This document shows, in pieces, positions 12,869 to 53,108 of a DNA stretch of 64,000 nucleotides. The DNA is from Octopus vulgaris (Eukaryota), in NCBI GenBank assembly GCA_951406725.2, contig OX597833.1, forward strand, positions 38,006,001-38,070,000, read 5' to 3'. Position numbers and translations under genes: made by a program. The notes under the pieces are model-generated. The model did no database searches, was not told the origin of the DNA, and saw only the letters and a program-made list of their open reading frames with translations. Position 1 is the stretch's first letter; every line of letters begins with the position of its first letter.

Positions 12869-12954
12869 ACTTTCCTGAAGAGAAGATTGCATTGTTTATA
12901 CCTTTTATTCTTTTGAATAGTATCAGTGGAATTTTCGAAACATATGTAGAAAGT
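12869..12954 (+). ncRNA. Type I hammerhead ribozyme (CUGAAGA core)
   Basis: actttc-CTGAAGA-gaagatt...aattttc-GAAA-catatg-TA-gaaagt; 6-bp helix I; palindromic helix III ACATATGT. Confidence 0.88.
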
Positions 12955-13014
12955 AAAAATACTTGTTTAAACCTGCGTTAACTCCATTTTTTATTCATAT
13001 ATATATATACATGC

Positions 13015-13063
<49 letters not shown>

Positions 13064-13609
13064 TACAGGATGTCACCAGTGGTGCAAATAACATGAAATA
13101 CATAAACAACAAGAAAAAAATGTAAAAAAGGACATATACATACAATGTATATATATATATATATGTACATAAAATGTGTATATATGTATATACACACACA
13201 CACACACATATATATATACATAATTTTTATTATTGTATAATGTGTAATGTGTTTATTGAATAAAGTATAAAGTATAATAAACCCATTACACCTTATACAA
13301 TAATAATAATAATAATCATTATAATAGCAGCTGAGAAACCAAGAACCAAAAAACGAATTAAGCGTAATAGAATACCTCTACAATAAAACAAATGGAATAA
13401 TAAACTTTTAATAATAATAAATCTACATAAACATTCAATCTAGCCATGACCTATTTTTAAGACTGTTTCGCTTCACATACCACATTTAGTAGGCGTGAAC
13501 ATTAAGTTTAGATTCCTATGACTTAATAGGAGCACCTCTGCCTCACACAAAACACTTTAGTCATTCAGTTTTTGATTCCTTCAGTTTTACTTCGAATCAG
13601 CTGAGGGCA

Positions 13610-13692
13610 AGGACCCTGATGAAATTGCACCCGGCCATGATGCCAGGTTCCAAAAGTGTGCAGTCACTGCAGTTGAGACACACGTACGTCCT
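13610..13692 (+). ncRNA. Degenerate hammerhead ribozyme
   Basis: aggacc-CTGATGA-aattgca...tgcagtt-GAGA-cacacg-TA-cgtcct; GAAA changed to GAGA and helix I/III mismatches. Confidence 0.6.
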
Positions 13693-14483
13693 GAAAAGAT
13701 GCTGTAAATAACTGTTAAATAAAATTATGGATTTGAAAAATCTCCGTTCTCCTTATCATCATTAATACTATTACTTGCTCTATGGAACATATGCAGTCCT
13801 GAACAGGAAACTTGGATTCACCCAGCAAGGAAAGTTACCAGAGCCTAAAAACTTATTGTTAGTTTGGATACCACATAAGGACTATTGTGTTTAGCTGGCA
13901 TCTGAAACTGACTTGAGAGGAAACACAATCACCACCAAGATAATATATCCCTTTAAACTCATTTTGAAATGTATACATACATATATACACATTATATATA
14001 TATACATACATATATATATATTATATATATACATACATATATACACATTATATATACATACATATACATACATTATATATACATGCATACACATATATAT
14101 ATACAGGCACAAGCATGGCTGTATAGTTAAGAAAATTTCTTCCATGTTCAGTCCTAAGTGTCTCCTACTATAGCCCCAAGTCTAACAAAGCTTTGTGAAT
14201 GGAATTAGTAGAAGCTGAAAGAAGCCCTTTGTATATGTGTGTGTCTGTACACATGTTAATGTGTGTGTGTGTATGTGTATGTTTGTGTGCGCATGTGCAT
14301 GTGTGTGCACACACATGAATTGGTGTCTCCTTGTCTTGAGATCATATGATGGTTGTGGCCTTCAGTGGAAATAGATGAGGACTGGTGACAAGAAGGGCAT
14401 TGGGCTATAAATAGAAAATCTGCCCCGACAAATTCTATCCAACCCATGTAAATATAAGTATACAATAAAACAACAATAATAGG

Positions 14484-15200
14484 CACAGCCATGGCTGCAT
14501 GGTAAGAAGCTTACTTCCCAACCACATGGTAGCAGGTTCAGTCCCACTGCATGACACCCTGGGCAAGTGTCTTCAACTATAGCCTCAGGCTGACCAAAGC
14601 CTTGTGAGTAGATTTTGTAAACAAAATCTGAAAGAAGCCCATTGTATGTATATATATAATAGATTGAATAAAACAGAGTTAACAAGAAGGAGTACAATTA
14701 GACATCTATTTAATAAAAACTACACATTTCGATACAACATATATCCACAGGATTTAAATTAAGTAAGTTTACCTATATAATGGGATCCAGTTGTATCTCC
14801 TCAGGCGATATAGAATTGCTATCCCCATTAGTAAACCTTTGACTTTGATGCTAACACATCCAACTGGCTTGTTTGAATCTAGTAGACGCCAGCTATTTGG
14901 TAATTCTAAGGGTAAACGAGCTCTATTTTGTACTTTACTACATTCCTAAAGGAATACACCTTAAATATATTTATATATATGTATATATCTATCTGTGTGT
15001 TTTTGTGTCTGTGTTTGTCCACCCCACCACCATCACCATTTGACAACCAGTGTTGGTGAGTATGCATTCCAGTAACTTGGCAGTTCAGCAAAACAGACTG
15101 ATAGAATAAGTACCAGTCTCAAAAAATAAGTACTGGGGTTGATTCATTCCCAGCATGGTCACAGTCTAATGACTGAACCAATTGAAAAGAAAAGATAAAA
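14484..15200 (+). mobile_element. Major-family SINE split by a Penelope-like pLTR fragment inserted in its internal TA microsatellite
   Basis: SINE head 14484-14645, tail about 14995-15200; the intervening 14650-14990 contains a minus-strand hammerhead. Confidence 0.78.
14716..14808 (-). ncRNA. Degenerate hammerhead ribozyme
   Basis: Minus strand gc-CTGAGGA-gatacaac...gttgtatc-GAAA-tgtg-TA-gt; perfect 8-bp helix II; helix III looks like CpG-decayed cgcg; helix I is weak. Confidence 0.65.
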
Positions 15201-16740
15201 GATATATATATTGCTGGGGAAGGCCGGTTTATGGGATTACTGAGTTTCCCATCCATAAAAGGCTTAACTTTATGGTGTATTGTCAGACCCAAAAATCTGT
15301 TAACCTAAGACCTCTTCAAAATATGGAGGGGGAAAGACCTCGTTGCAAATGTAAATGAGCGGATTATCTCCCTTCGCTATTGGCTATCAACTATTGAGTT
15401 CCAGCTGTGCTGCCATCATGCAGTCTCCAAAAAGCTACAAAGGTATACAATAGGGGATTATCTCCCTTCGCCATTAGCTATCAATTTCCAGCAGTGTCGC
15501 CATCTTGCGGATTCCAAAACACTAGTAGGAATTTCCTAAAATTTGCATCCTTAACTCCAGAACAGAGATTTTCAGGCCATGTTTGCAATCCATTGGCACC
15601 AATACCAGCAGCTCCAGCATCAACAGCAGCAACAACAGCCATCCAAGAATTTGGACCTGGAGATCTCAATTTCCAGCGACTTCGAGGGCCACCTCCCAGC
15701 AGTGTTGGGCATCAATGCAGAGCCCTTGACTACAACAAGACGACCAAAGTTTTTTTTTTCCAAGGTCTGGGGTCTCCCGCCCCTAAGCCCTAGACCATCA
15801 CCTAATCACCCTTACCGGTCTTGTTGCTTAACAACAACAACAACAACAGCAGCAACAACAACAGCACCATCAGTGACAGCAACAACAACAGCAACAGTAA
15901 CAGGTGAAGCACCAATATCACGTGCCCATCAGAAGAATTACAGTGGGATTGCTCACACTAAGTGATCTTTGATGTTTCTCACTACTTGATGTGGTTAGCC
16001 ATAATCTATACTATATGTGAGAGCTTACACATTACCCACCTGGGTAATCTATCCTTATGTATACATTATATATATATATATATATAATATGATGAGTATA
16101 TAGGGATGGATTACTCAGGCAGTACTGTAAGAGCTCTCATGTATAGTCTAGATTACGTGAGAGCTTTAGCAGTATCCACCTGGGTAATCTATGCCTGTAC
16201 ACTCATCATATTATATGTGTGTGTATGTGTATATATATATATATATACACACATATAATGTGTGTGTCTGTGTGTGTGTATATACACACTCACAGTATAA
16301 AATTGTGTGATTTTCCTGAAATAAAGGGGGCTGAAATATATAATGCTATAAAAAGAAACTGCATAAATGAATAAAACATGGGAGGAAGAGATGACAAAAC
16401 AGGTTTAAAATAGGTGGAACTGAAATAAAACTGGAAAATTTTTTTTTTAAATTAGCTTTTATGATTTGGGATTTAAAAAGTAGTTTGTCCACATTACATG
16501 AATGAAATAAATAAAAAACGTCATCACAAACACTAATGCTTAACAGTGTTAAAACCTTTTAAAGTGTGATTGCTTTTATCCTGATTTACCATGCAACATA
16601 GAAATTATATTTACAGACTTGAAATCATGCATGAAACAATCGTAGTAATGGTCTTGTGAATTATATGTGTGTGTGTGTGTGTGTGTGTATACACACACAA
16701 GTTCATGCATTCATTATCACAACACAATGGGGTTTTTTGG

Positions 16741-16830
16741 AGAGGAGGAGGAGGAGGAGGAGGAGGAGGAGGAGGAGGAGGAGGAGGAGGAGGAGGAAGG
16801 AGGAGGAGGAGAGGGAGGAAGAGGAGGGGG
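16741..16830 (+). repeat. (GGA)n polypurine microsatellite
   Basis: Read directly. Confidence 0.95.
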
Positions 16831-17294
16831 TAATTTGAAATGTATTGTAAGATATTCATAGCCAACTTGATTTGTTTGATTTACATAACAGAGCATGCAT
16901 TAACAATGTAGTTTTTTTTTTCCAGCAGAGTCTTTTAGATAATTTAAAATGAAATACAAAAAGGTGTGACTCTATTTTTTTTTCTTTTCCTTTTTGATAA
17001 GCATTCATAACAGTTTGATAAGTATTTGCTGTGTTAACACCACAGATTTTTATCTCTCTATGGAGAAGAGGATCAATATGTGAGATCAATCTAAGTGGTT
17101 TCTAGTCTTCTTAGACCTTTATCAGAGAAAGAATATCCATCTTCTGTCCTCAGAGAGATTTATAGTTTATTGCTTAGACAAACTCAAATCACAGCTAAAC
17201 TTGTCCAACTAAATTGGAAAAGAGTACATGCACTGACAATATGGTTAATTAAAATAATTAATAATATACTAGACATTTTTTTTATTGCTATTTC

Positions 17295-17712
17295 TTTTAT
17301 CTTTTGCTTGTTTCAGTCACTAGACAACAGCCATGCTGGGGTGCCAATTTGAAAGGTTTAATCAAACAAATTAACCCCAATACTTTTCTTAAGTTTGGTA
17401 CTTATTCTATCAGACTACTTTGACAAACTGCTAGGTTACAGGGACATAAACAAACCAAAACCAGTTGTCAAGTGGCAGTAGAAGAAAAATACAACACAAA
17501 CACAAAGACACACGCACGTAGTTACATACATAAATATGTATGTGTACAATGGGCTTTTTCAATTTCCTTCTACCAAATCCACTCACAAGCCTTTGGTTGG
17601 CCTGGTTGGGGTTACAGTAGATGCTTGCCCAAGGTGCTGTGTAGTAGGACTGAACCCAAGACCATATGGTCAGGAAGCACGTTTCTTAACAACACAACCA
17701 TACAATGTGCCT
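17295..17712 (-). mobile_element. Major-family SINE, diverged
   Basis: Similar to 42920-43436. Confidence 0.75.
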
Positions 17713-17831
17713 GTTGATAATTTGAAGTGTAATGTAAGGGGGGAGGGTTGTTTTGGTTTTTTTTTCTTCTTTGATAAATAAACAATTTTATTGTTGTATT
17801 TCAATTTTTTTTTTTTTGGTTTCTTGCCATA

Positions 17832-18132
17832 CACTATATGTTTTTTTTTCTTCACTTATTTATTACTGTTCTTATTTTATCATTCTAACTCATGTCCATT
17901 GTCTGAAAATCTTTCATCATACATCTGTGACCTCTGAAGAACAGAATGTGACCTCTGAAGAACAGAATGGAGTAAGTAAGAACAGAATGGAGTGTGTTTT
18001 CTTATAAACGAAAACAAAAAGTGTCGTTGAAGAGGTCACAGATGTATGACGAAAGATTTCTGGACAATGGACATGAATTAGAATAATAAAATAGAAACAG
18101 TAATAAACGAGTGAAGAGAAAAATATATAGTG
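17832..18132. repeat. Inverted repeat with arms of about 100 bp, from a dispersed repeat family
   Basis: 17832-17934 is the approximate reverse complement of 18031-18132. The same family occurs near 32250-32395, 41300-41520 and 49095-49140. Confidence 0.85.
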
Positions 18133-18674
18133 CATGTGCTCATTTGGGAAAAAGAAAAAAAATGACCATCCCCGAAATACAACAATATCTGTTTCAACAC
18201 ATGATTTCACATCAGGAATCTTACAAAACAAATAGATAAACAATTTTAGTTTGGCTGTAGAAACAAAATAAACTAAATGTTAACACTATGGATGTTTATC
18301 TCTCTCTATAAGCAGAAAAAAATGGGATCAATCTGAATAGTTTCAAGTCTCCTTCCACTTTCACCAAACAAACAGTACCCATATGCTGTACAGAGACGGA
18401 GATCAATTAATCAAACTGTATACGTTATACAAATATCTATACGCTTTTAACCTCTCCATGGACGTAAGATGAGTATTCAAAATGAGAGTGAATGGATATA
18501 AATTCCACATTTTCTACACACACAGATATAAAAACTTGTGGTGTGACCAGTTTGTTTGATCTAAACAGCAAGGCTAAAACAATATGTTTATCAACAAAAT
18601 ATACCACACAATGCATTTCATATACTCACACACACATAAATATACATATATCCATTGTATATATACATATATGC

Positions 18675-18707
<33 letters not shown>

Positions 18708-18727
18708 TATGTACATACATACATGTA

Positions 18728-18799
<72 letters not shown>

Positions 18800-20824
18800 A
18801 ACATGCAAGCATGCATGCTCATACATACATGCATCCATCCATCCATCCATCCATACATCCATACATACATACATACAGTGAGTATGCCCTTAAGAATAGA
18901 ATTACTATATGTTACAATTTAGCTGTATTGCAATGAGTTTTAAGCAATGAATTCAAAATGAATTATCCAAACAGTACTTTGTAAGGAGATGCACATAAGC
19001 CAAGAGACTCTTAAAGCAACTTATGTATGAAAGAAACAAGGTGAACTGATCTTTATATGGATGGTAAGCTTATCTTTATACGATAAGCTTGTCTTTATAA
19101 GCTGGTCTGTATATGATAAGCTTGTACAACACCATATAACATAAATACTACATGTTTAAATACAGTTATAATATATAGATACATATATGTATGACAGAGG
19201 ACATTCAAGAGATGTAGGTATGGTGAAGAAGTATTTTAGTAGCACAGCTTGGGAATAAAGACTTGATTGGAAAGCAATAGCATGAGAGAAGGCAAACAAA
19301 AAAAAACAACAAAACTCACACAATACGTCTGTGGTTATGGTCACATTTATGAGGGTATCTGTAAGAGGATGGAGTTATTAAACAGATAAGAAGTGGATTG
19401 AGCAAAAAACAACCAAAAATAATCAAAAACAACAAATCAAGAGATGGTTATTAAACACAGCAAACATGAAAATTAGAACAAAAATTAATATGTATGTATG
19501 TATGTATATAATCTAAACATTATTTGATCCATTTACGAAGGTATGTGAATGATTTAGAAATATTTTTATCGGCAGTGCAGCAACAGGTATTGAACTAGTT
19601 TAGAATAAATTTGGAGTAGCTACCAAAGTATGTATATAGATATATATGTATGTATATATTATAGACAAGTGTGTGTGTGTGTGTGTGTGTGCGTGCCTGT
19701 ATGTATGTATACACATGTGGTATTATAATGTTGTTAGTAAAATATCAAAGCAGAGAGTAAACAATAAACATGGCCTCAGAGCGTGCACAATTAGATAACA
19801 TTATTAACAAGAGCAGTAATGTGTGTGTGTGTGTGTATGGATGGTTATGTATGCATGTTAAAATTTATGCAAATAGCCACAGCAGTAGCAACTACAACAA
19901 CAACAGTAACAACATGAGATTTGAATATCCAGAATCATTTACATGAAGATTTGATAGATTCAAATTAAAGCCTCATTAAAAACATCATTTCATTAAATTT
20001 ATCATCGTAATCCATTTAAAAACAACATTATGATTATCATCAAAACAGACATCATCATTATCATCATCAAAATCACCAGCATTGTTTCCAAGCTCATATT
20101 TTTTATGCATATGGATTAGATGGAAACAATTGATCCTGAATTAATAGAGCCACAATCTATTGTGTTAATTCTTATGGTAACACATTTATTTACTAGATAT
20201 TTAAATCTATAAACGCTGCATAACAGAACAGAACCACAATGAACCAACAAAACAAAAATATATTTAAACAATAAACAATTCAACAATCAAAAAAGCAATT
20301 AGTATCTGAACATGTAAATGTAAGTTTTTTTCAAATTTTAATTTATTCAGAGAAAGATGGGGGAGGGCAGAACCCATAAGTTTCACAGACCCTCCCAAAG
20401 AAAGATGTGGGAGATGAGGGAAGCGTTCATAAACTTTGCAGGGTCTTTCAAATAAAGAAGTGGTGGGAGAGAGGTAATACTCATGAACTGAGCAGGTCCT
20501 CCCAGAGAAGGATGGAGCGGTGAAGTACTAAACATAACAGGTTGTTTCAAATTGATGTGGTCAATATGGTTTATTTTCAGCTCAAACTTCTCTAGGTTGA
20601 TTTCTGTATGGGAAACAAGAACAGACATTTTTGGAAGAAAATTTGTGGAAAGAGTTTTTGTACAGGTTTTGTGAGCGTGAGATTCAATAGAGATGACAAG
20701 AGAAAATAAGTTTGGTGTATCAGTATCAGACAGATTTGCAGCTGGTCAGCTGCCATTGTTTCAAAATTTGCAATTACAATTACAAAGCCTCTTCTTGAGA
20801 TCAAGAATGATTGGCCGGCACAGA

Positions 20825-25703: not shown

Positions 25704-25739
<36 letters not shown>

Positions 25740-25897
25740 CACACAAATGTTTATTTTTTATATTCAGTTATAATAAAAACAATTTTGCATTACTCTGATG
25801 GCTTACTCTATACTTTTGTAGAGTACAAATTTATTATTCTTATACAAGTAAGCCATAGACAGTGACTTCGAAGTTTCAGCTAGCTAAACTATTGCTG

Positions 25898-25944
25898 GAC
25901 AGTCCAATGATGGCTTAGCTGTGCAAAACTTCAAAGTCACTGTC
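25898..25944 (+). ncRNA. Decayed hammerhead ribozyme inside a fold-back
   Basis: gacagt-CCAATGA-...c-AAAA-cttcaaag-TC-actgtc; the inverted upstream copy keeps GAAA-cttcgaag-TC-actgtc. Confidence 0.6.
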
Positions 25945-27434
25945 AACAATATTCTTGTATAAGAATAACAGATAAATAAATAAATGTGTGTGTGTGTATG
26001 GTTGTGTTGGACTTACAGAAGAAAAGTATTTAAAGCTTCTTTAAGAAATATAATACAACCATTTCAACTGGTTATGTTACAAATAACTTCATAACCCTGG
26101 CCTCTAGTACAAACAAGACACCATAATATTTAGCAGCACAATAGAAGCAGATGTAACGTTATGTGTATCATAGTCTTTGTGATGAAAAAAAAACTGAGTA
26201 GACAATAGAGGGAGAGAGAGAGAAAAGGGAGAACAGAGTGGAAAGGGGTAGAATTTAGTAATAATACTCTATATGATGAACAAGTTTTTTTTTTGTCTGT
26301 TTGTTTGCTCTCAAACTACATTTGAAAAATAATGTAAAATTACAAACTTCCTTTCATTTCATAGTCTAGAAAAGATATTAATAATGAAAGGCACTATCTT
26401 TTTATCACTTGTCTTTCACTTGTTTCATTCATTACTGTAGCCAAGCTGTAGTACTGCCTTGAAGGGTGTAGTCAAACTGGCCCCAGTACTTATTTTTGAA
26501 GCCTGCTACTTAGTTTATCAGTCTCTTTTTACTGAACCACTAAGTTACAAGGGAATGAAAACAATCCAACACCAGTTGTCAAGTGGTAGTGTGGGACAAA
26601 CACAAACACACACACAAAGAACTGTCATATTAAGTATATTGTGGTGAATAAGGATCAGGACTTCTAAAGAAAATTTCCAGAGACAGATTTTCCAGGAGGC
26701 TTTATCATTCATCCGGTTAACACAATAGAATAGAGCTTTACAGAAGGCTTATATGAAAGAATTTACTTTAAAATTCCAAATTCTCAAAATGCCACAAACC
26801 CACTCACTTTGAATAACGAATTTACATTGCAGGCAGCCAGAAAAATTATGTTATTAACTGTTTGTTATCCAACCTCTGTACATACACCTATGCAAATATA
26901 CTTCTGGTACATATCTTGTACAACTAACCTGTTTATGTGTGCATACACAAGTCGTTGTTGCCGTCATCATTACCATTGATGTCATCATTATATTCACCAC
27001 TGAAGTAGTGGTTGTCATTATCATTGTAATCATCATCATCATCATCATCATCAATATTCCATGTTGGCATGAGTTGGACTGCTGGTATGGTATATGTGTA
27101 TTTATTTTACAGTCAGAAGATCTCAAATTTGACTATATTTGGCCAAGTGTCTTCTATCATAACTTTCATCCAACCCATGGCCTGTGTGTGAAATTAGGTT
27201 GAGTAAAACAATGTAGTATTCAGTGATAACATCCTTCACTCCAGACTTTCCTTCATCCGCTCATTTCAGATGTGATCTCTCAAGGAGATTCCCAGTATTG
27301 ACTTTACCATGGCTCTTTGCACCATTACCTAATACGTACCTAACATCAATACAACAATGACAACAGCTACATACTGAATTGTAATACTAGAATAAGGAAA
27401 TGTGCTTCAAGAGGACACAATGAATTTTCCCTGC

Positions 27435-30683: not shown

Positions 30684-32126
30684 AAAGCCATAAGTCTTGT
30701 GAAATACAGCAACTTAGGTTTATTTGGCTAAAACATTAATTTATTTCACCATTTTTCAAGCTGAGAGCAAGAACATTAGTCAGTTGCTTTTTTAAGCAGG
30801 GAACACTCATAAGGAAGAAGACAAATAGCAAATAGAAAAACAACTGTGTGTGTGTGTATAAAACTATGTATATATGTATTTATGTATGTGTGTGTATATT
30901 ATAATTTATATGCATGTACATCATAATAAAATAACATTGTTAGTGTTCGCTGAAATGGTAAAATTACAGTTTAGGCATTGTTTTCTAATAACATGTTCTT
31001 AGTGTAATCATTAACTACTTAAATGAAACAGGTTTGGTTTTAATTCAAAGTTGGAATTTCAAACACTGCACACTTGTCAAAAACAGAAATAAAAGAAATA
31101 AATAATTTTTTTAAATGATTTTGCAGATAGCAATTATAATTCAAACAAAACTAAATTTCTATGAGTCTAAAAACCTGACCTGACATTTTTCTCCATACCT
31201 GAAACTTGATCTGTCAAAAATATAAAAAAGCAAAAACAAAAAAAATAAATAAATACAAAATGCACAGAATCTGATCTGAAACTAAAACAAATTATTACAA
31301 ATTTGTTTTAAATGAAGCCTGTACTAAGCAACAATTAAATAATGTTGCCTGATTATGGAAATTAAAAAGATAATAGTTTTATATTTTTCCATATATTTCA
31401 TATTGCTTTGTTTTTTCATCTTTTATTCTTCCTTTAATTATACATCAGTGAAAAAGAAAACTAATTAATAAAATTTATAAAATATTTAAATTGTTTAAAC
31501 TATATTTTGTTGTGATTTGGGTATTTTGGGGAATTTTTATTTTTCCTGGTTTTCTTTTTACGTTGAAGACCATCAGTATCTTCCCTTGAATTCTTGTTTT
31601 TAGTTTCTTTTTTTGTTGTTTCCATTATTGCTTTTTTATTCTTATCCGGGTCAAGTCCGATTGAATAAACCTATAATCAAACGCCTTTTGGTCTTGTCCT
31701 CCCTTATTTTGTTCTTATACAGAATTAATTAATTAATTAATTCTCACACAGTGTGTTTATGTTATGGAATGTATTGATCAATTGATTTCATTTTATAACA
31801 CAATTTCAAAATAACAACACCATTAATTATAGGTTTCCAATGAACCAATCACTGGCTCACAACATTTCTGACAGCGATAGTAACAAGGGAGAGTCTATAA
31901 GCCAGTGCACAAGACTCTGTTCTTACAAAAGATTTCATTCAAAGAGTACTGGTTCTTCACTGAGTTTTCTATCCTACACTGACCTACCTTGTTTAAAGAT
32001 ATACATTTACATGCATATATCTTTATCATCATAAACATATATAGTTAATCCAAACACGAAAACACAACGTGAGGACGTGGAACAAGCATAGTGTTATTGG
32101 ATGCTCAGGAAAGGAAAGAAAGGAGA

Positions 32127-32161
32127 ATTTAACGTTTCAAGCGGAGCTCTTCATCAGAAAC
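32127..32161 (-). ncRNA. Minimal type I hammerhead (Penelope-type)
   Basis: Minus gttt-CTGATGA-a-gagc-tcc-gctt-GAAA-cg-TT-aaat; loopless palindromic helix III ACGT. Confidence 0.72.
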
Positions 32162-32410
32162 ATAGGAAGAGGAAAGATCCAAGGAAGGGAAGACGGAGGA
32201 AAAAAAATCGCCATACACACACATATTTCATATATTTCTAGACGGTCTTTCTTTTTGCCAAATAAACATACACACTAAAAACTCGTTCTTCACTTCACCA
32301 TTGTTATTATCCTTATTTTAGTATCCTTTCTCTAAACTCTTTTATCACACATCCTGTGACCTCTTCAGCAACTCTCCATCCCACACGTCTCCTGTTTGTT
32401 TAGTTCACAT

Positions 32411-32684: not shown

Positions 32685-33303
32685 ATAAATTAGAAAAAAA
32701 AACCCACCTCTTATCAATTAGCATTGTGTATTACTTAACATCAAGGTTTTTAGCATAAATTGCTTAATGGGTATTAGACTTTATTTGGATGTTTATTAAA
32801 TATATATATTAATTAATAATTTGATTTAATGTATATAGTTTAAAGTGTTGTATTTAGTTTTCACTTAATGTATATTTTTTATCTTATATATATATATATA
32901 TATATATTAAATATTTTAATTAATTGTATCTTATTTTTTTAACAAGAATATATTTGTTAAAATATTTCGTATTTTATAAGATTATTTAAGTATATTTATT
33001 AATTTATCTAATTAATTAATTTATTATTGTTGTTATCTTTAACCTGAAGAGTGGCTATATTTATATTGAAGTGATTTTACTACTACTACTATTATTTTTA
33101 CTATTATCATTTCTTAAATATAGCCACGAAACATGTGTCGTTATTCTACCAAATATATACGTCTTATTTATTATCTTGCACATTACTTAATCATAGTTAT
33201 ATGTTTTATCTTATATTTAATCTTTCTATAATATGTAATTTTCTAGATGGTATAATTTAATTAATTATTGAATTGATAAGAGGTGGGTTTTTTCTTTAAT
33301 TTA

Positions 33304-33877: not shown

Positions 33878-35726
33878 TCATCATCATCATCATCATCGTT
33901 TAACGTCCGCTTTCCATGCTAGCATGGGTTGGACGGTTCAACTGGGGTCTGGCAAGCCCGAAGGCTGCACCAGGCCAGTCAGATCTGGCAGTGTTTCTAC
34001 AGCTGGATGCCCTTCCTAACGCCAACCACTCCGAGAGTGTAGTGGGTGATTTTATGTGCCACCGACACAGGTGCCAGACGAGGCTGGCAGACGGCCACGC
34101 TCGGATGGTGTTTTTTATGTGCCACCGACACAGGTGCCAGACGGGGCTGGCGGACGGCCACGCTCGGATGGTGTTTGTTACGTGCCCTAAGCACGGAGGC
34201 CAGTCGTTGCGGTACTGGCTACGATCACGTTCGGATGGTTTTCTTATGTGCCACCGGCACTGGTACCACAAGGATACAAATTCCATTGATGTTCATCTAT
34301 TTTGATTTGGTTCGATTTGATTCGATCCGATTCTCACTTGCCTCAACAGGTCTTCACAAGTGTCACAAGAAGGAAGGTATGCACAGGTGGACTGACTACG
34401 TCCCAGGTAGGGGCCACGGATTATGGCTTCACTAGTCTTGCCGGGTCTTCTCACGCACAGCATACTTCCATAGGTCTCGGTCTCTAGTCATTTCCATGGT
34501 GAGACCTAACGTCCGAAGGTCGTGCTTCACCACTTCGTCCCAGGTTTTCCTGGGTCTACCTCTTCCACGGGTTCCCTCAACTGCTAGGGATTGGCACTTT
34601 CTCACACACCTATCTTCATCCATTCTCGCCACATGACCATACCAGCGCAATCGTCTCTCTTGCACACAACAACTGATGCTTCTTAGGTACAACATTTCTC
34701 TCAAGGTACTAACGCTCTGTCGAGTAAGTACACTGACATTACACATCCATCGGAGCATACTGGCTTCGTTCCTCACGAGCTTACGCATGTCCTCAGCAGT
34801 CACGGCCCATGTTTCACTGCCATGTAGCATAGCTGTTCGTACACATGCATCATACAGTCTGCCTTTTACTCTGAGCGAGAGGCCTTTAGTCACCAGCAGA
34901 GGTAAGAGCTCCCTAAACTTTGCCCAGGCTATTCTTATTCTAGCAGTTACACTTTCAGCGCACCCGCCACCACTACTGACTTGGTCACCTAGATAGCGGA
35001 AGCTATCAACTACTTCTAGTTTTTCCCCCGGAAAGTGACGGAAGTTGTTTTCTGCAGATTTTCGGAGGTCAATGCTCCAGAGCATCTGCCACATACAAAA
35101 ACTATCTTCCCAGTTAGCCTACCTTTGACATTGCTGCACCTCTTATGTGTCCATAGCTTACACTGGGTACATCTTATAGAGTTTCTACCTACACCTTTTC
35201 TACAGATCGAGCAGGGCCATCTTCCTGAGGATATTTGTGGATTTTCTAACTTTCTACTTATTAGTACTTTGGTTTTAGCTAGGTTGACTCTAAGGCCCCT
35301 CGATTCTAAACCCTCCTTCCACACCTGGAACTTCTCCTCCAGTTCTGATAGTGACTCAGCGATTAGAGCGAGGTCGTCAGCATAGAGGAGCTCCCAGGGG
35401 CAACCTGTCTTGAATTCCTCCACAATTGCCTGGAGGACTATGATAAATAGGAGGGGCTGAGTACTGAACACTGGTGGACCCCAACCTCTACCTTGAATTC
35501 TTCTGTGTACATGCTGCCAACTCTAACCTTACTTACGGCATCTCTGTACATGGCTTGCACAGCCCTCACCAGCCATTCATCTATCCCTAGTTTCCTCATT
35601 GACCACCAGATGAGGGATCGGGGGACCCTATCAAAGGCTTTCTCCATGTCAACGAAAGCCAGGTACAGGGGCTTATCTTTGGCTAGGTATTTCTCCTGCA
35701 GCTGCCTTACCAGGAATATAGCATCA
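33878..35726 (-). mobile_element. 5'-truncated RTE-clade LINE, young copy, with (GAT)n tail
   Basis: RT motifs [34 protein letters not shown] and VNLAKTK; C-terminal RRLRWYGHVARM and GRGRPRKTW; internally repetitive 3' UTR. Confidence 0.96.
34432..35725 (-). pseudogene. RTE reverse transcriptase (partial, two frameshifts) with an inserted PHD-type zinc finger
   Basis: ORFs 35438-35992 (3' part only), 35016-35471 and 34432-35094 join into one RT polypeptide across frameshifts near 35455 and 35030. Confidence 0.93.
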
Positions 35727-35949
35727 ATATATACACATATATACAAACATATATATATATATACACACATATATACAAACATATATATATATATATACAC
35801 ATATATACAAACATATATATATATATATACACATATATACAAACATATATATATATATATACACATATATACAAACATATATATATACACACACATATAT
35901 ATATATATATATACACACACATATATATATATATACACACATATATACA

Positions 35950-35991
<42 letters not shown>

Positions 35992-36035
35992 TACATATAT
36001 ATATATATATACATACATATATATATATACATACA
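35727..36035. repeat. Compound TA/CA minisatellite (same unit as 33305-33877)
   Basis: Read directly. Confidence 0.95.
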
Positions 36036-36049
36036 TGTGACCATGCTGA

Positions 36050-36590
36050 TGCACCACTGTTTTGCTACACTGTTATTACTAAAAGCCTCCTCTAATATGT
36101 GGCATTTGGTGAAGATTGGAGTTTGATATAGCTACCCTCATTTGCACCTCTTGCTGTGAGGTAGCTTCATCTGGGACTCTCGACAGGAAGAGGTCCAGCT
36201 TTGATTTAAAAACCCCTACATCTACTTTGTGCAAGTTCCTCAGACTCTTTGGGAGAATATTAAAAAGTTGTCAGCCCTTGAAACCCAGGCTGTTGCAGTA
36301 ACTGGTCCTGAAGCGTGATGGCTTTGCTGGGATCTTTGGCACTATGTAGTGTCATCCTGTTCTGGCATTGGTGTAGCTTTCAATGCCAAAATTTGGCACA
36401 ATTCCTTCCAGGATCTCCCAGATATATATTACTGCATACCTCTCCCATCTTCTCTCCAGGGTGTAGAGTCTTAGCTGTTTCAACCTTTCCCAGTAGCTGA
36501 GCTGTTGCAATGAGACGATCTTCTTTGTGAATCTTCTCTGTGCACTATTTTTAGGGGTTAAGCTTTCTCTCTTATCTCCCCTTGGCCAAT
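36050..36590 (-). mobile_element. CR1/L2-group LINE 3' fragment
   Basis: AQRRFTKKI..LSYWERLKQLRLYTLERRWERYAVIY...FKSKLDLFLSRVPDE. Confidence 0.85.
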
Positions 36591-40351: not shown

Positions 40352-41519
40352 TATTAAAATGGTGAGCTGGCAGAATTGTTAGCGCACTGGGCAAAATGCT
40401 TAGTGTCATTTCATCCTTCCTTATGTTCTGAGTTCAAATTCCACCAAGATTGACTTTACCTGTTATCCTTTCAGGGTGGATAAAATAAATACCAATTGAA
40501 CACTGGGGTCAATGTAATGGACTAGCCCCCTTCCCAAAAATTTCAGGCCTTGTGCCTATAGTAGAAAGAATTATTATTATTATTATGATGATGATGATGA
40601 TGATGATGAAAGCAATGGATTGGCTGAATCATTAGAACACCAAATAAAAGTAGCCCTATCATAGTAGTGATACCATATGCAAGGCCAGCTAAACAGCCTA
40701 TAGACCCCTCAGGCCAAGCAACGCACTGGTCCCCAACATACCCAAGCACAGCATACATATGTTAGCATTAGGCCCCTACACTCATGGAGCACCAGGACAG
40801 CTACCCAGTGTGCCCATGCCCCAAAACAACAGTGATAATAGGAAGAGATATAGCTCAATAGTATTTGTTAAAATCATTCTTATTAACACCGACACACACA
40901 CACACACACTCAAACACACACACACACACATACATACACTTTTTGGTTCCTCCTGGCCTAACTTGTCTTGTTATTTAGTCCCAAATCAGTCTTCACCAAA
41001 CAAACTTGTTACTAAAGGCATTCCATATATGACCACCACCTTTTTTGTATATCCAGGACTACACTGTTCAATATGTCCTTCCATTTAAGATAACAGAGTG
41101 TGATTTAAGGGAGATTGACTGCTATTTCTTATCAGATCAAACGATCCTGTACAGCCCCCTTCACTAACCTGCCCTACTTCTCTTTGTATTAGGTACTATA
41201 TTTCCGGTATCTTCCCCTTGGGAGAGAAAAGTAGAATAATGTAGTTTGATTTGTTTTTCAGACTTAATTAAAAATTAGCAGAATTATGCATAATAAAAGC
41301 TAAATTACATTTATGTCTTTGTTTTGCAAGATTCCTCAGGTGAAATCATATGTTGAAATAGATATGGTTATATTTGGATTTGGGGATGGCTATATTTTGC
41401 CAACTAAACACATGCGCCATATATTTGGTCTTCACTTCAGCTTTATTGTTATTCTTATTTTAGTATGCTTTGTCTGGAAATCTTTTGTCACACATTCTGT
41501 GACCTCTTCACCAACTCTC

Positions 41520-42096
41520 CATCTCATCATGGTGTTTGGAATGATCACTAGTGATGACGACGTTATGCCTCCATTCATCTTCCCACATGGCCTCAGACTC
41601 AACACAGAGGCCTACATCAAGTGCCTGGAGGAGGTAGTGCTGCCCTGGATCAAGAGGGTGGCTGCTGGAAGACCCTAAGCCTGGCAACAGGACTCTACAC
41701 CAAGTCACACAGGCAGGAGAACCCAGTCATGGCTGTCAGACAATTTCTGCCCCCACATCAACCCTAACATCTGGTCATCTAACTCCCCAAACTGCAACCC
41801 ACTTGATTATTATGTGTGGGGCACAGTTGAGCAAGAGACCAACAAAACTCCAAAGATGAACTGAAGGTAAGTATTGTGGCAGCATTCACCAAATTAAACA
41901 AGGAGACCATCCAGAAGAGTTGCAAGACATTCTGGAGGCTGTGGTTAAAGCCAGTGGCAATTTTATTGAATAAATCTACTCTTTAGTATTTCAAGATATT
42001 TTTATGTAATTTTTGTAGATATATCTGTTAAAATGAGATGTCAGTGTTATTTTCATTTTTGCATAATTTAGATGACAGTTTATTCACCGCACCCTG
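41520..42096 (+). mobile_element. maT/DD37D transposon 3' relic
   Basis: IMVFG...MPPFIF...YIKCLEEVVLPW...WQQD-x37-D (NPLDYYVWG); right end ...CACCCTG. Confidence 0.85.
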
Positions 42097-44968: not shown

Positions 44969-44974
44969 ACTTAA

Positions 44975-45414
44975 CCATTTAGCATTCAGTTTTCTGTTAA
45001 ATGTTATGCTTATTTATTCATATTCTTTTGAATTAATCATGCATTATCTCATAATTTTGAGATTGTGACGAGGTGATTGTTATTTTTAGAATGACATAAT
45101 AGGATAGGCATGAAACACCAGATCTAGCTGGTTTAACCATTTTGATACCAATCTGCCTGAAACTGCCTCTGGCTCTGTAGTACAAATGTCTCGTTTTCAA
45201 AAGCTCTGAATTAAAATCTTCCACCAAACCTTAGTTACAATTTATGTTCCTAACACTAGTTTAATAATAACTAAGTTATTTTACTAAATTCTTCGTTATA
45301 TTTAAAACCAATTGAAAGAAACACAGAGCATCTCAACAGAAATATGGTAACAAAAGGTTTAAACATGAAACAGAATATTTGGACCAAATAAAGTCCAGTT
45401 TAAGTGTTAAAGGG
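44975..45414. mobile_element. piggyBac MITE A with MITE B nested at an internal TTAA (45137-45358)
   Basis: Outer TTAA|CCATTTAGCATT..TAAAGGG|TTAA; the inner element is flanked by TTAA at 45133 and 45359. Confidence 0.85.
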
Positions 45415-46641: not shown

Positions 46642-47081
46642 CCTTTTTAATATTTATACCAACCATATCTAGCTCAAATATTCTACCTGTTTTATGTTCA
46701 AACTGACCAGATCTGGCCTCTCCCACCTACCATACCATGTCATTATAAAAATAAATAATCGTATCATCGAAATCTTGAAGCTACAAGATAATGCATGATT
46801 TATTCAAAACAATGTGAATAAATAATTTTACATTTGACAGAGTAATCTGAATGCTAAAGGGTTAACCCTTCAGTGTTTATACGAGCCATATCCAGTCCAA
46901 ATATTTTGTTTTATGTTCAAATTGGCCAGATCTGGCCTTTCACACCTGTCCTACAATGTCATTCCAAAAACAAACACTCCTATCATCAAAATCTCAAGGT
47001 TATGAGATGATGCATGATTAATTCAAAACAATGTGAATAAATAAATATCACATTTGACAGAAAAATCTGAATGCTAAAAAG
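46642..47081. mobile_element. Two tandem piggyBac MITE A copies sharing a central TTAA (46862-46865)
   Basis: ...AATGCTAAAGGG-TTAA-CCCTTCAGTG... Confidence 0.85.
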
Positions 47082-47980
47082 TTGAATTACTACTTGCAAC
47101 ACTACACTTTGCTATAAATAGCACCACGTAAGGTAATCCATACCAAAGGATCTCAACCTGCCTTTGTCAAGTATCTGACACCATTTCTCTAATGTTGAAA
47201 GTAATCGTTCAATATTGTCTACTTGCGGATCACTTAAAACTCAGTGGTCTATGAATGTGCCAGAAGATAGAATATCAAAGTGAAATGTTTGTGAAATAGT
47301 CTCTCTAGCAAAACTATTTCACTTCCAATAGTTTGATCCACCAAGCTGCAAACATACTGTGAAGAAGAGTGACAGAGTGACAACTTATAACTGGTATCTC
47401 ATCAATTTGCTGCTTTCAGGTAGTCTCAAATGTTATTAACATGTTAACCACCATGGTCAGTTACTGGAACTTACTAGTTATACTACATATTCCCGGTCAC
47501 ACTGCATATTGTTTAATTACAAGGGAATGTAATTTTTTTTATTTTGACATTTTTGCAATATAACATAAACTTTAATATTTAGCACGCATGTTATCTGAAT
47601 ATCCTTGAAACCATGTCAAAGATAAAATACTTTCTCAAATTATGAAAATGTACCACTGGTGGTGCTTATAGGGATTGTGTGAAGTTTGCGATGAACCACT
47701 AACGGTACATGTGGCAGTTAATATGTTAAACATCAGTAATAAAATCATATTTCAAAACATGCTATAAACAGTGCCCTAACTATTCTTCTTAATGGTTATA
47801 GGATCAATTAATAATATGGTTTATTACTGACTCCCTCTTTCCAGATCCTTCTTCCAGTATATTTATTAATATTTCATTTATTATTTAATCCTCTTCTTGC
47901 AAGATGGGAAATAAGATTTTGACAATGAATTGCTATTGAAAATTATCATCAGCAATTCTCTCTCTCTCTCATATATATAT

Positions 47981-48028
47981 AATTTCAAAGTAAGGTGATT
48001 AAAATTTTAATCACCTTACTTTGAAATT
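47981..48028. repeat. Perfect 48-bp palindrome
   Basis: AATTTCAAAGTAAGGTGATTAAAA|TTTTAATCACCTTACTTTGAAATT. Confidence 0.97.
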
Positions 48029-48160
48029 GTATGGATAATACCGTACTAAATTCTGGTACCTCAACTTAAGTACCATATTCATCTGAATATATATATATTG
48101 ATAAAAATGGTAAGACAACAAAAGAATGAGAGACCTCGATATTATGTAAATAGAGGAATT

Positions 48161-48237
48161 TATCTGTAAATGTAATATGTGACGATTATTCAGAGTTTTA
48201 TCATGGCTACCGAATAATCGTCACATATTACATTTAC

Positions 48238-48242
<5 letters not shown>
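48161..48242. repeat. Perfect 31-bp inverted repeat with 20-nt spacer
   Basis: TATCTGTAAATGTAATATGTGACGATTATTC / GAATAATCGTCACATATTACATTTACAGATA. Confidence 0.95.
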
Positions 48243-48281
<39 letters not shown>

Positions 48282-48910
48282 CTCTTTCTTTCTCTCCCCT
48301 TTTTCCCTAGCACTCTCTTCCTCTCTCTACATTCCCCCCTCTCTTTCTGCCTTTTCTCATCTAAGATTCAGTTCTCTCAGCTCACTTTCAATTGTTCAGC
48401 TATCCAGGCTTTCACTTTCCAAGTGGAAACCATCTTAATACTACTTTAGTATCCAATCCAAGTCTATTCAGTGTGTATGGCCAAGCTGTTTGAGCCACCA
48501 GCACTTTAATTCAAGAATCCTAATATTGCAAACAGTTCCACAGTACAACTCCTCTTTTGATACTTTGTTGGGTTGGAAGTTGCAGCAGATTCTGGTTCGA
48601 CAATCAGAATGGGAGGCATTGATTTCATTTGCATCTCTTTTTACCACAAACAAGCTTTCTGAACAATGACTCTGAACAGATTTGATGTTGTTATTATGAA
48701 GTCCAATCTCAGTCCTTAACTTTCAGTATATTACTGCTGTTCAATAACTGATTTCAAATTTTGACACAAGGCCACTAATTTCAGGGGAGGGAATAAGTCA
48801 ATTACATCAACCCCAGTGCTCAAATGGTACTTATTTTATTGACCCTGAAAGGATGAAAGGCAAAGTTGATTTCAGCAGAATTTGAACTAGGAATGTAAAG
48901 AGAATATTTC

Positions 48911-49095
48911 AATATTCTACTGTGTCTGGGGAGAGTCATTTTCTTTTTGTGCCTTATAATTTAAGATACTCACCAGTAAAATTTCCACTTATTTTTATTT
49001 TCCTAAAATAAGAAATAACAGGAAATTTTACCAGCGAGTGTGTTAAATTATAAGGTACAAAAAGATAATGACTCTCCCCAGACACAATAGAATAT
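48911..49095. repeat. Long imperfect hairpin (arms of about 90 bp)
   Basis: ATATTCTACTGTGTCTGGGGAGAGTCATT...AAATTTCC versus GGAAATTTT...AATGACTCTCCCCAGACACAATAGAATAT. Confidence 0.9.
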
Positions 49096-49564
49096 GTTTC
49101 AACACACGAATTCACATAAAGAATCTTGCAAGCCAAAGCCAAAATATATTTTAATTATCATTAATATTTTTAATGTTGTTATTGTTGTTATTATTATTAT
49201 TGTTATTATTATTATTATTATTATTTGCATTCATGATTGTGAGAATGAAGTTTCAATTCCTAGACCAGGTTGAGCAAAACATTTCATCTCATATTGCTCT
49301 CCAATCACTTCCACACCTAACATGTGATATACCATGCACCTGTACAGGCAATGGCAATTTGATGAAGACATCGAGCTAATGTACAGAATATACATCTGAT
49401 CACTATAAACAAATCATTTGTGCAGGTTGTTCAGCATAAGCTGAACACTCATATGCTGTCTTCAATAGGAGTCATCATCATCATCATCATCATCATAGAT
49501 ATTCCTATACTCTTTTAACTGTTCTAGCCTTTAGTCATGGTCAAATGTATCTTTTTTTAAATAT

Positions 49565-49940
49565 ATCTTTTATTATTTACTCGTTTCAGTCATTAGACTG
49601 TGGCCATGCTGGGGCACTGCCTTGAAGAATTTTAGTCAAACTTATCGACCCCAATACTTAATTTTTTTTTTAAGCCTGGTACTTATTCTGTCAGTTTCTT
49701 TGCCAAACTGCTAAGTTACAGCGATGTAAACACACTAATACCAGTTGTCAAGTGGTGGTAGGGAACAAACGCATACAGAAAGATGCACACACACAATGGG
49801 CTTCTTTCAGTTTCCATCGGCCAAATCTACGCACAAGGCTTTAGTCAGCCTGAAGCTATAGTAGAAGACATTTGCCCAAGGTACCACTCAGTGGGACTGA
49901 ATCAGGAACCATGTGGCTGGGAAGCAAACTTTTTGCCACA
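49565..49940 (-). mobile_element. Major-family SINE
   Basis: Similar to 42920-43436. Confidence 0.85.
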
Positions 49941-50041
49941 CAATTTATTTGTAAATTTAGTGATAAAAGGTACTCAAGTTCAGTTTTGTAATTGTTCAGC
50001 AATTTCTCTCTCTCTCACACACACACACATACCTCAGTTAA

Positions 50042-50264
50042 CCCTTTCATTACTAACCCACCTGAAACTGGCTCTAGCTCTGTAGTACAAATGTCTTGTT
50101 TTCATAAGTGTTGAATTAAAATCTTCCACCAAACCTTTAGTCACAATTAATGTTCCTAACACTAGCTGAATGATAACTAAGTTATTTTACTAAATTCTTA
50201 GTTATATTTAAAATAACTGAGAGGAAACACAGAGCATCTCAAAATAAATACAGTAATGAAAGGG
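50042..50264. mobile_element. piggyBac-type MITE, family B
   Basis: TTAA|CCCTTTCATTAC ... GTAATGAAAGGG|TTAA. Confidence 0.88.
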
Positions 50265-50479
50265 TTAAGCAAATAGCAGTGAATGTTATAGAAAAAAACA
50301 GGCCTTGTGAAATGACAAGCAATCACGTATTGGAATGAAAGGAATTTTTGTAAATAATAAATAAAAACTCATTGAAGCAACAAAGTCAGAGGAATATTAG
50401 CAAATTAAAAGGAAGAAAAACACCAAATCAAGCATTGATTCATTCTGCTGAAGACATTTCATGAACAAACTTTACTCAC

Positions 50480-50690
50480 CTTAGTTGACGTTCTAGGTAG
50501 GTCTTCTGTTCTTTCTCTTCAATTGGATACTCTGGTATTTCAAAAGGGGCTGATGCTACTTTGAGAGAATTGGACTGGCTCCGATGAAGAATTGAATCAG
50601 CCACTTTACGGAACTCATCATCAACTGTTTTAGTCACGTGTTTCGACATTTTTATATCACTTGGACACAAAGTATGACTCTCGGGTGAGT
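50480..50690 (-). CDS. AMPD2: Internal coding exon (211 nt, phase 1 to phase 2) of an AMP deaminase 2-like gene, N-terminal region
   Basis: Acceptor tgtttttgacag| and donor AAG|gtgagt. The peptide VDDEFRKVADSILHRSQSNSLKVASAPFEIPEYPIEEKEQKTYLERQL matches, from memory, the AMPD2 N-terminal motif SAPYEFPE..PIEQ.E....LERQIS. Confidence 0.8.
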
Positions 50691-51269
50691 CTGTCAAAAA
50701 CAACAGACAGGCAAATGAGAATACACGAATTTAAAGTGTTCAGAAGATAAGGAAGAAATATTCAAACTCTAATATTTTTACACAATGACTGTCAACTTGA
50801 TTATAAAGATGCTGAATGGTACAGCTTTTAAATGACCTCGTTTCAAACTGAACTTATTAAATGAACTTATTAAAGCAACAACAATATAGCTTATCTCACA
50901 ATCAGGACAGTGTACACAGTGTGGTAATGTGTGTGTATGTGTGTGAGCACACGTGTCTGTGTGTGTACATATATATATGTGTATGTGAGAGCATATATAT
51001 ACTTACACACACACACATATATACATATGTGTGTGTGTGTGTGTTGTTCTCTTAAGGGCCTATACTTATTCTACTTCTCAAACCACTGACTTTGTTGCAT
51101 ACAAAAGCAGTATGTTTTTACCACCTAAAATTTTATACAACACATACTTAGAGAGACATATAGAATTGTGGGGAATGTGCTATGTACTAGTGCCTAGTAT
51201 ATCTAAACACTATCATTCCAGCCATAAAATACCTTGTTGGCCAGGTACTAATTCTGAAATAAAAGGCTT

Positions 51270-51660
51270 GGGTGTGTGATAAAAAGTTTGCTTCCCCAAC
51301 CACATGGTTCTGGGTTCATTCCCAAGGCATGGCACCTTGGGCAAGTGTCTTCTACCAAAGCCTTTTGAGTGGATTTGGTGGACAGAAACTGAAAGAAGCC
51401 CATCATATGTATGTGTGTGTGTGCGCACACATGCATGTGTGTGTTTGTCTTTGTGTCATTGTTTGTCCCCCACCACCACTTGACAACCAGTACTGCTGTG
51501 TTTACAGACCCCCCATAACTTAGCGGTTTGGCAAACAGAGAAATAGAATAAGTATCAGGCTTTAAAAAAAAATAAGTACTGAGGTGCATTCATTCGACAA
51601 AGATTCTTCAAGGTGGTGCCCCAGCATGGCCATAATCTAATAACTGAAACAAGCAAAAGA
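51270..51660 (+). mobile_element. Major-family SINE
   Basis: Head CCAACCACATGGTTCTGGGTTC...GGCACCTTGGGCAAGTGTCTTC and conserved tail. Confidence 0.85.
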
Positions 51661-52534
51661 ATATTAAATACACACAAACTCACAGAAAGAGAGAATGTAT
51701 GAAGATAAAGAAAAGAATCCCAGGTCTGAGGAGCTGAGACAAAATGAGGAGGATTCAAGAAAGGAGATGTTAAATGAATGTTAATTGTAATAGAGTGGTA
51801 GTAGAATAGGAGTGTTAGTGTGAGGTGCAGGAAAGTCAGTTTATAAGATTAAACTGTTTTCCTTTCTCCTTCCCTTTCTCTTGATTTTTCCCCCCTTTCT
51901 GTTATTTTCTTTCTCTTCCTCTTCAGATCTCTCTCTCTCACTCTCTCTCTCTCATTCTCTTATATCACAACACTTATACATACATAAAACACATACACAC
52001 TCACAACTCTCAGATTATATTGTTTAAAAAGTATAAACTGCGAGTTAAGAGTGTGATACAATAGAGCTTTTAAAATTCTTCATTTAAAAATGCAGCTGCA
52101 ATAGTCTGAAAACGTCAAAGATGAATTTTCAAAGTTTGATGTTCCAAAAGCATTGCAAAGGTCTTCAAAAAGTTAGTATACAATTTCAAATACCATGCAA
52201 GACAGAACATACACGCACAGTGGACTCTCATGTCATAGATGACAAATGAGCATTCTGCAATTCTTGGCTGAACAACTTGCATGGATGATGATGTGTTCAT
52301 AATCATTAAATGCATGTGCTATAGCCCACTCTCTCCATCAAATCAACATTGCCTGAACAGATGCATGGTGTGTCGTATGTCAGATATTGTAGTACTCGCA
52401 GAGCGATATGACATGAAGTGTCCAGCTCCAGAGCACAATGGACCACCCAGTCTGGGAATGGAAACCACAATCTCATCACAATCATGAGTGCATCATCCTA
52501 ACCACTAGGCCATGTGCTCTCACTACAATAATCC

Positions 52535-52603
<69 letters not shown>

Positions 52604-52628
52604 CACACACATATATACACATGTACAT

Positions 52629-52668
<40 letters not shown>

Positions 52669-52699
52669 CACACACACATATATACACATGTATATATAC

Positions 52700-53108
52700 A
52701 TATTAATAGTTATCGCCATACTTATATGGCAGTCTTATACATATAACACTAAAGCTGTCGCTGATTAGCTCCATGAAGCCACCGCCTCAAGCTAGCTATT
52801 TGACACACAATCTGCGTCCATTGTAAACCTTCGAACAGGGGAGGTCAGCCGCTTCATCCTGCCAGTCAGACAGCAGCAGACATGTTTCAGGGTATTTGCC
52901 CTTTATCAATGCAGCGTAGTCAGACCCAGCAGGTGTCGCTACTGACTGTCCCTGTTCAAAGAATCTATTTACCTAGTTTCAGTGGAATACATCCACTTGT
53001 TTTCAATAATAGAAATATTAAAATTACTAAGTCTCTCTAAAGGAGATTATAGCAGCGTTACTGGAAATTAATAGTTATCGCCATACTTTAGAGAAACTTA
53101 GTAATTTT
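52700..53108 (-). mobile_element. Penelope-like pLTR fragment with hammerhead, terminal direct repeat and inversion
   Basis: ATTAATAGTTATCGCCATACTT at about 52702 and 53067; AAATTACTAAGTCTCTCTAAAG (about 53021) inverted at about 53086-53108. Confidence 0.7.
52873..52915 (-). ncRNA. Minimal type I hammerhead with variant U3-A8 core
   Basis: Minus gctgca-TTGATAA-aggg-caaata-ccct-GAAA-catg-TC-tgctgc; palindromic helix III ACATGT; GUC site. Confidence 0.72.

Follow-up and report, generated by a model that had tools for sequence, protein, structure and literature searches.

Type I hammerhead motifs in unrelated repeat families of Octopus vulgaris and the recurrence of a core substitution at position 4

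A stretch of 64,000 nucleotides from the Octopus vulgaris genome (OX597833.1:38,006,001-38,070,000, in an assembly of 2.8 Gb and 227 contigs), hereafter the window, carries a tandem array and seven dispersed motifs that a preliminary description took for type I hammerhead ribozymes, that is, hammerheads open at helix I. This locus raises the question of whether such motifs are part of a large and diverse population in this genome, and of which elements carry them and what the ribozyme does for their spread. On the basis of the sequence comparisons described below, we consider it likely that the window samples at least eight unrelated families with a type I hammerhead near the 3′ end, two of them Penelope-like elements of the Hydra type and the others probably non-coding riders, and that these ribozymes would cut slowly and mainly as dimers. 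In addition, three unrelated families share a core with C in place of U at position 4 (U4C).

The frequency of the motif was determined with a strict descriptor comprising a helix I of at least 4 bp (1 mismatch allowed), the core CUGANGA or UUGANAA, an optional extra base, a helix II of at least 4 bp, GAAA, a helix III of at most 14 nt and UH, in the type I layout. The window has a GC content of 35% and many (TA)n and (CA)n tracts. The four matches obtained outside the array (positions 2301-64000), at 12869, 32127, 33040 and 52873, compare with means of 0.07-0.13 in window shuffles of four kinds, none of 240 of which reached four, and with no match in the reversed window sequence. A genome sample of 120 random 10-kb stretches (1.2 Mb), located on 28 contigs and leaving out distal parts of some contigs as well as the remaining contigs, contained 18 matches. 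Its 15 trinucleotide block shuffles averaged 2.0 matches and reached 7 at most, the reversed sequence gave 1, and seven decoy cores gave 0-4. Sorting by eye left 15 of the 18 as plausible, in about 12 sequence types of which two are relatives of window families, and 3 as chance-like. No loopless minimal hammerhead, with GAAA directly followed by UH, was found in the 1.2-Mb sample. Among single core variants, U4C gave 2 matches where 0.4 were expected, and the others stayed at chance level. Scaled to the genome, these values correspond to approximately 37,000 intact motifs (95% range 20,000-62,000), or 42,000 when U4C cores are included; the density in the window is about fourfold the genome average (expected 0.9, P=0.015). 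The real rate thus exceeds that of composition-matched shuffles both in the window and in the sample, which bears out the earlier proposal of a large and diverse population; the core used in that proposal, YUGANRA, misses the U4C cores. These data support the presence in the octopus genome of a large, diverse hammerhead population, of the kind already described in other animals. This extends a known pattern to a genome in which repeat annotations miss such motifs: the main text of a 2026 paper on octopus repeats does not contain the words "hammerhead", "ribozyme" or "retrozyme" (PMC13282606).

Each of the seven dispersed positions marks one end of a type I hammerhead layout, and the bases at position 7 are U, A and G as given in the preliminary description. 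Four of the motifs are intact according to the strict descriptor, whereas those at 13610, 14716 and 25898 are decayed in the window. Their lack of sequence relationship was confirmed: BLAST among the eight motifs, array included (word 7, E<=0.1), returned one out-of-register 16-nt match (E 0.036), and family searches revealed that each of the seven motifs marks a separate dispersed repeat family (A to G, in order of position). The mostly palindromic helix III also claimed there is exact in only three of the seven window copies (12869, 32127 and 52873), is present in relatives of six of the seven families, and is imperfect in the 14716 family and in the array. A Penelope origin could be demonstrated for two of the seven families (12869 and 14716) and is presumed for the remainder. 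In general, the families are flanked by (TA)n, with fixed 3′ ends and either inverted 5′-truncated partners or tandem units.

The state of the hammerhead in other copies was analyzed with a looser descriptor that allows U4C, overlapping loci being included in the counts. The fraction of copies passing was 80/85 for the array, 40/46 for family A, 15/17 for G, 10/16 for E, 9/18 for F, 7/17 for C, 3/17 for B and 0/23 for D. Two of the three motifs decayed in the window (13610 and 14716) therefore have intact relatives, and 25898 has none among 23 copies. For the window copies, folding helix III into a hairpin has an unfavourable energy of +0.8 to +6.0 kcal/mol, and no such hairpin can form in family E; in contrast, the corresponding self-duplexes are favourable (-1.7 to -8.6 kcal/mol). 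This is the configuration of the minimal, dimer-type hammerheads associated with Penelope elements, with a short palindromic helix III that is unstable in the monomer. Regarding the ends of the elements, the predicted cut was spanned by 47 of 49 alignments in family A, 18 of 22 in F, 40 of 44 in E and 16 of 34 in G (121/149 in total); only 2 of these 149 alignments started within 3 nt of it and none ended there.

Family A is the one with the most complete coding capacity. Three copies (loci L171-L173) contain unbroken frames of 778 amino acids with a reverse transcriptase (YRDD) followed by a C-terminal endonuclease, and their YRDD, DKT, RxRW, CxxC and CxH motifs fit the description of the Hydra clade. 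Insertion in (TA)n, an inverted truncated partner and a tail on one side only, all of them Hydra features, were also observed, copies often lying in inverted pairs with the 128-bp tail at one end. The best named homologue of the protein, at 35% identity, is from Argonauta. A repeat of about 400 bp adjoins the family A element at ~11540-11910; a relative of it is inserted within an F copy in locus L180, and others occur in L089, L066 and L215. Family E copies were seen in (TA)n beside family A elements (L175:2866-3213 and L010:2338-2800), which is consistent with a shared target.

Family C is the second family of the Hydra type. Its hammerhead in the window has lost 2 nt in helix III and retains a 2-bp helix I, and in loci L227, L230 and L232 the family runs continuously from a Hydra-type endonuclease, the only part of the frame for which there is evidence, to the hammerhead, at a distance of ~670-680 bp in L227 and L232. 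Families B and D are old (~80% identity). The B motif carries GAGA for GAAA and a junction mismatch in helix I; a link to an endonuclease was considered for it and rejected, as the nearby frame belongs to another element, which closes with a hammerhead and (TA)n of its own ahead of the start of B. At L267:1990-2640 (minus strand) lie the end of an endonuclease and a decayed hammerhead that are similar to the 3′ end published for Hydra-1_Obim, and a B copy is nested in the (TA)n of this element. The plus-strand motif of family D (25898-25944) has a CCAAUGA core and AAAA for GAAA, and the two arms of this inverted pair are unequal in length. In many copies (window 25858-25944 and L197-L210, the query favouring such copies) the inversion falls at almost the same short inverted repeat, and this constancy suggests either fold-back of the complementary DNA at that point or spread as a unit.

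Among the remaining families, E is represented by 7,949 exact matches to a 34-letter pattern. The hammerhead of family F shares a long loop II with those of A, B and C. Nearby frames were also considered as partners of E, F and G, and no link was established in the loci examined. Family G, which occurs as a tandem dimer in locus L187 and has the U3-A8 core in all of the 15 copies (out of 17) that pass the descriptor, and the array family have the organization of non-LTR (non-long terminal repeat) retrozymes, i.e. tandem units that are non-coding and contain a single type I hammerhead, and both units fold better than shuffled sequences (z of -7.5 for the array; the value for G is in Table 1). 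The array contains four whole hammerheads with cores at 507, 1012, 1517 and 2022, which read CUGAUGA and have a near-palindromic 9-nt helix III. The array family is young and is scattered over the genome in tandems that include inversions, the listed full-length matches being 95-100% identical. The array extends to the left of the window, where it flips strand (L176), and family copies share one end (query 339-346). A 535-nt contig from a run that is only guessed to be RNA (run X2) joins the end of the array unit to its start, which fits a circle or a genomic tandem equally. Further U3-A8 hammerhead families that are absent from the window were noticed in loci L061, L131, L149, L176, L180 and L278, mostly with CCGG as helix III.

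The U4C core was found in families A and E and, through its probable ancestor, in D. Close relatives of the 12869 motif mostly read CCGAAGA, and exact 23-letter patterns of family A yielded 502 CCG, 421 CTG and 7 CCA copies. In a tree of 33 rows from which the core columns had been removed, the CCGAAGA copies, including the three with full frames, formed a derived clade (97/91). The canonical CUGAAGA copy of the window is nested in this clade and is likely a C-to-T revertant. Decay of a CpG as the source of all canonical A cores was rejected, given 421 CTG versus 7 CCA copies, and would hold only inside the CCG clade; since 80 of the first 100 CTG copies also carry G7, the CTG copies are a separate lineage. 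In family E, the first 100 of the 7,949 matches comprised 75 CCG, 21 CTG and 4 CCA, and in a tree of 42 rows 15 CCG copies formed a derived clade (96/90) next to an older star of CTG copies that includes the one in the window. For family D, positions 4-5 in 20 arms, counted by eye, read CA in 9, TG in 8, CG in 1 and otherwise in 2, the pattern expected from a CpG ancestor, and we infer CCGACGA as its ancestral core. As judged from these trees and counts, U4C is the younger and more numerous lineage in families A and E. Family A and the array unit are covered by contigs from four runs that are guessed to be RNA; at position 12876 these contigs had C in 426/578, 249/590, 48/51 and 84/126 of summed depth. 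Such contigs are no evidence of transcription, of ends or of circles. Of these observations, only the repeated U4C core was not found in print: U4C in Penelope hammerheads was not found in the literature searched, outside which lay the largest survey of variants (Luense et al. 2017), which may cover it. Descriptors that fix U4 undercount such motifs.

The arrangement of these families suggests how their hammerheads may take part in retrotransposition. The reverse transcriptase and endonuclease of the element would nick (TA)n DNA, prime downstream of the hammerhead and copy across it; as reverse transcription crosses the hammerhead, the template would have to be uncut or re-ligated RNA, probably circular in the case of G and the array. 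The short palindromic helix III, unstable in one molecule, would pair between two copies, so that cutting would be slow and need a partner copy. Family G and the array would use cutting to release and circularize their units, and the non-coding families would borrow Penelope enzymes. Most genomic copies are probably truncated, solitary and inert. This proposal agrees with the low, dimer-only activity reported for Penelope hammerheads (Cervera and De la Pena 2014, PMC4209133) and with the report that catalytic hammerhead mutants of an anole element had no effect on insertion in vitro (PMC11167929).

A less supported extension concerns the substitution itself. Reverse transcription runs across the predicted cut site in these copies, and spread may therefore be aided by slower cutting: U4C would weaken cutting, leave more uncut template and be tolerated or even favoured in the most recently spreading lineages. 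According to one paper, the substitution markedly reduces activity in vitro but is compatible with infection by the viroid (Perreault et al. 2011, PMC3088659), and as a hypothesis it could slow cutting and thereby aid spread. One tentative reading, about which we keep more doubt than confidence, is that cutting in cis destroys the template which the reverse transcriptase has to cross, and that three families have for this reason converged on a U4C hammerhead of reduced activity. If it were true, the speed of the ribozyme would be a property under selection that sets how far retroelements spread, and the U4 and C4 sister lineages of one active element would be a natural experiment on the purpose of Penelope hammerheads.

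Several points weigh against these proposals. A Pfam search gave no family for the 778-amino-acid frame and nothing meaningful for the endonuclease part in the window. The CxCX5C linker is absent from family A, in which three cysteines kept in at least 85% of homologues are I, N and N; for this reason the family was filed as Hydra-type and not placed by a tree, its class being based on motifs and on unnamed homologues. In the loci examined, no reading frame was linked to families B, D, E or F with a profile made from Hydra-type proteins, which may miss other clades, and no link to F was established for a reverse transcriptase found beside one F copy. The A and E trees derive from short alignments with midpoint roots and from samples biased to the closest relatives of the window copies, and four CCG rows of family E fall outside the CCG clade. 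Moreover, the number of copies per lineage is a weak measure of fitness, as a lucky single master can found a burst, and U4C had no effect on cleavage of a viroid hammerhead according to a paper that cites this result (PMC9608096).

The data were also weighed against other explanations. A loose descriptor applied to repeat DNA that is AT-rich and full of hairpins may match by chance, and that the motifs are such matches could be argued from the three window copies out of seven that fail the descriptor, from shuffles that yield about 2 matches per 1.2 Mb and once 7, and from an Rfam scan (E<=10) with no hammerhead family among the best 150 of 239 matches, those listed being nearly all microsatellites against microRNA models, each below the gathering score. 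This is refuted by the excess over shuffles, with 4 matches in the window where shuffles give about 0.1 and 18 in the sample as compared with 2; the intact relatives of two decayed copies and the position at the 3′ end of Penelope-like frames also speak against it, and we regard chance as extremely improbable. It is also quite improbable that the host has adopted the population as regulatory self-cleaving RNAs that trim or destabilize its own transcripts. The large number of motifs and the family sequences in contigs of the runs guessed to be RNA would fit such a role; against it, every tested motif belongs to a multi-copy mobile family, and the old families B and D, with their low pass rates, decay without constraint.

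An explanation closer to the one proposed here holds that the hammerheads are real but idle passengers, and that U4C became common through relaxed selection and lucky founders and not through any benefit of slower cutting. Neutral drift combined with founder bursts is a fair rival, and we give the passenger explanation as a whole a small but real share of the probability. It is in line with copies that are not bounded by the predicted cut, with the normal insertion of hammerhead mutants in vitro (PMC11167929) and with the suggestion that hammerheads may simply parasitize these elements (Craig et al. 2021, PMC8557442). On the other hand, young families (A, G and the array) retain all helices and the rest of the core in most copies, the same master-level change occurs in three families and is a substitution reported as tolerated in viroids, and T-to-C creates a CpG, which would run contrary to the usual mutation bias. 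Slow, mainly dimeric cutting of hammerheads that are copied through is the explanation that we prefer. The role of Penelope hammerheads has been called unclear (Craig et al. 2021, PMC8557442), and can be tested with a young element whose frames are intact and of which U4 as well as C4 lineages exist.

Table 1. Hammerhead-bearing elements and their parts in the window (coordinates of the 64,000-nucleotide stretch).
Feature	Position	Strand	Remarks
505-bp tandem retrozyme-like array	1..2234	+	hammerhead 502-566, copies at +505 steps
Family A 3′ tail, 128 bp	11909..12035	-	inverted at the 5′ junction here; elsewhere the segment downstream of the element's (TA)n
Family A endonuclease frame	12021-12668	+	hammerhead 200 bp behind
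Family A, 5′-truncated Hydra-type Penelope-like element	12033..12996	+	endonuclease part, 3′ untranslated region, (TA)n end
Family A intact type I hammerhead	12869..12954	+	CUGAAGA; predicted cut after 12948
Family B decayed hammerhead, old non-coding family	13610..13692	+	family extent ~13417-13960
Family C decayed hammerhead, 3′ end of second Hydra-type element	14716..14807	-	extent ~14640-14889
Family D old head-to-head inverted pair of decayed hammerheads	25708..25985	.	+ arm 25898-25944, - arm from 25858
Family E non-coding mini-element of ~235 bp in (TA)n	32000..32240	-	pattern matches
Family E minimal hammerhead	32127-32161	-	intact by descriptor; predicted cut after 32131
Family F young AT-rich non-coding element, at least 1.1 kb, inverted copies	32719..33296	+	no frame linked
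Family F hammerhead	33040-33143	+	intact by descriptor; predicted cut after 33139
Family G 365-bp retrozyme-like unit and ~22-bp terminal repeat	52702..53088	-	fold z -4.9
Family G hammerhead	52873-52915	-	U3-A8 core, one helix I mismatch; predicted cut after 52879

Other repeats were observed in and near the window. A broken non-LTR retrotransposon, which we take to be RTE-like, lies at 34432-36064 on the minus strand (RVT_1 match, E 8e-9) and is interrupted by a (TA)n/(CA)n tract at 35727-36033. About 7 kb to the right of the window, L179:7313-9688 (plus strand) holds an unbroken reverse transcriptase frame of 792 amino acids, RTE-like by eye. A frame at 41304-41678 (plus strand) resembles by eye a Tc1/mariner transposase fragment, and a Pfam search with it gave nothing significant. 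Short tandem units occur inside other repeats, of 63 bp at 34045-34203 and of 16 bp at 2363-2418.

The octopus motifs can be compared with several known systems. Animal genomes have been described as harbouring thousands of type I motifs each, in many families and including U3-A8 variants (Cervera and De la Pena 2014, PMC4209133). The motifs studied here share with those metazoan Penelope hammerheads the short helix I, the extra base after A9, the palindromic helix III and the U3-A8 variant, as well as the occurrence of many unrelated families per genome, mostly solitary and with some inverted pairs, and family E fits the consensus given there. They differ in number, with ~37,000 estimated here and 2,000-9,000 given there for single genomes, in the long loop II mentioned above, and in U4C, which is absent from that consensus and from the alignment rows compared. 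With regard to the Hydra clade, for which elements with hammerheads are listed that include the octopus Hydra-1_Obim, all with CUGA cores (Craig et al. 2021, PMC8557442), family A agrees in its single frame of less than 3 kb with the reverse transcriptase before the C-terminal endonuclease, in the DKT, RxRW, CxxC and CxH motifs, and in (TA)n insertion, 3′ hammerhead, tail at one end and inverted truncated partner. Hydra-1_Obim itself has a decayed relative of its 3′ end in locus L267 (compared by eye); family A is a different family, without the CxCX5C cysteines, and its youngest lineage has U4C in place of the CUGA of the Hydra elements listed there.

Animal retrozymes, of which as many as 120,000 are reported for axolotl (Cervera and De la Pena 2020, PMC7229834), have been derived from Penelope repeats in a study whose described sampling does not include molluscs (bioRxiv 10.64898/2026.07.22.740005). 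The G (365 bp) and array (505 bp) units resemble the non-LTR retrozymes of these two works in that they are tandem, AT-rich and non-coding, fold strongly and contain a single type I hammerhead per unit; they differ in the U3-A8 core of G and in the inverted partners of both, as in Penelope insertions, and are known here from DNA. Finally, U4C (CCGA) hammerheads are cited for peach latent mosaic viroid and a viroid-like RNA (PMC3088659, PMC9608096), where the same substitution is reported to be compatible with function in vivo. In those RNAs they are rare variants, whereas U4C prevails in two octopus retroelement families and there amounts to hundreds to thousands of copies.

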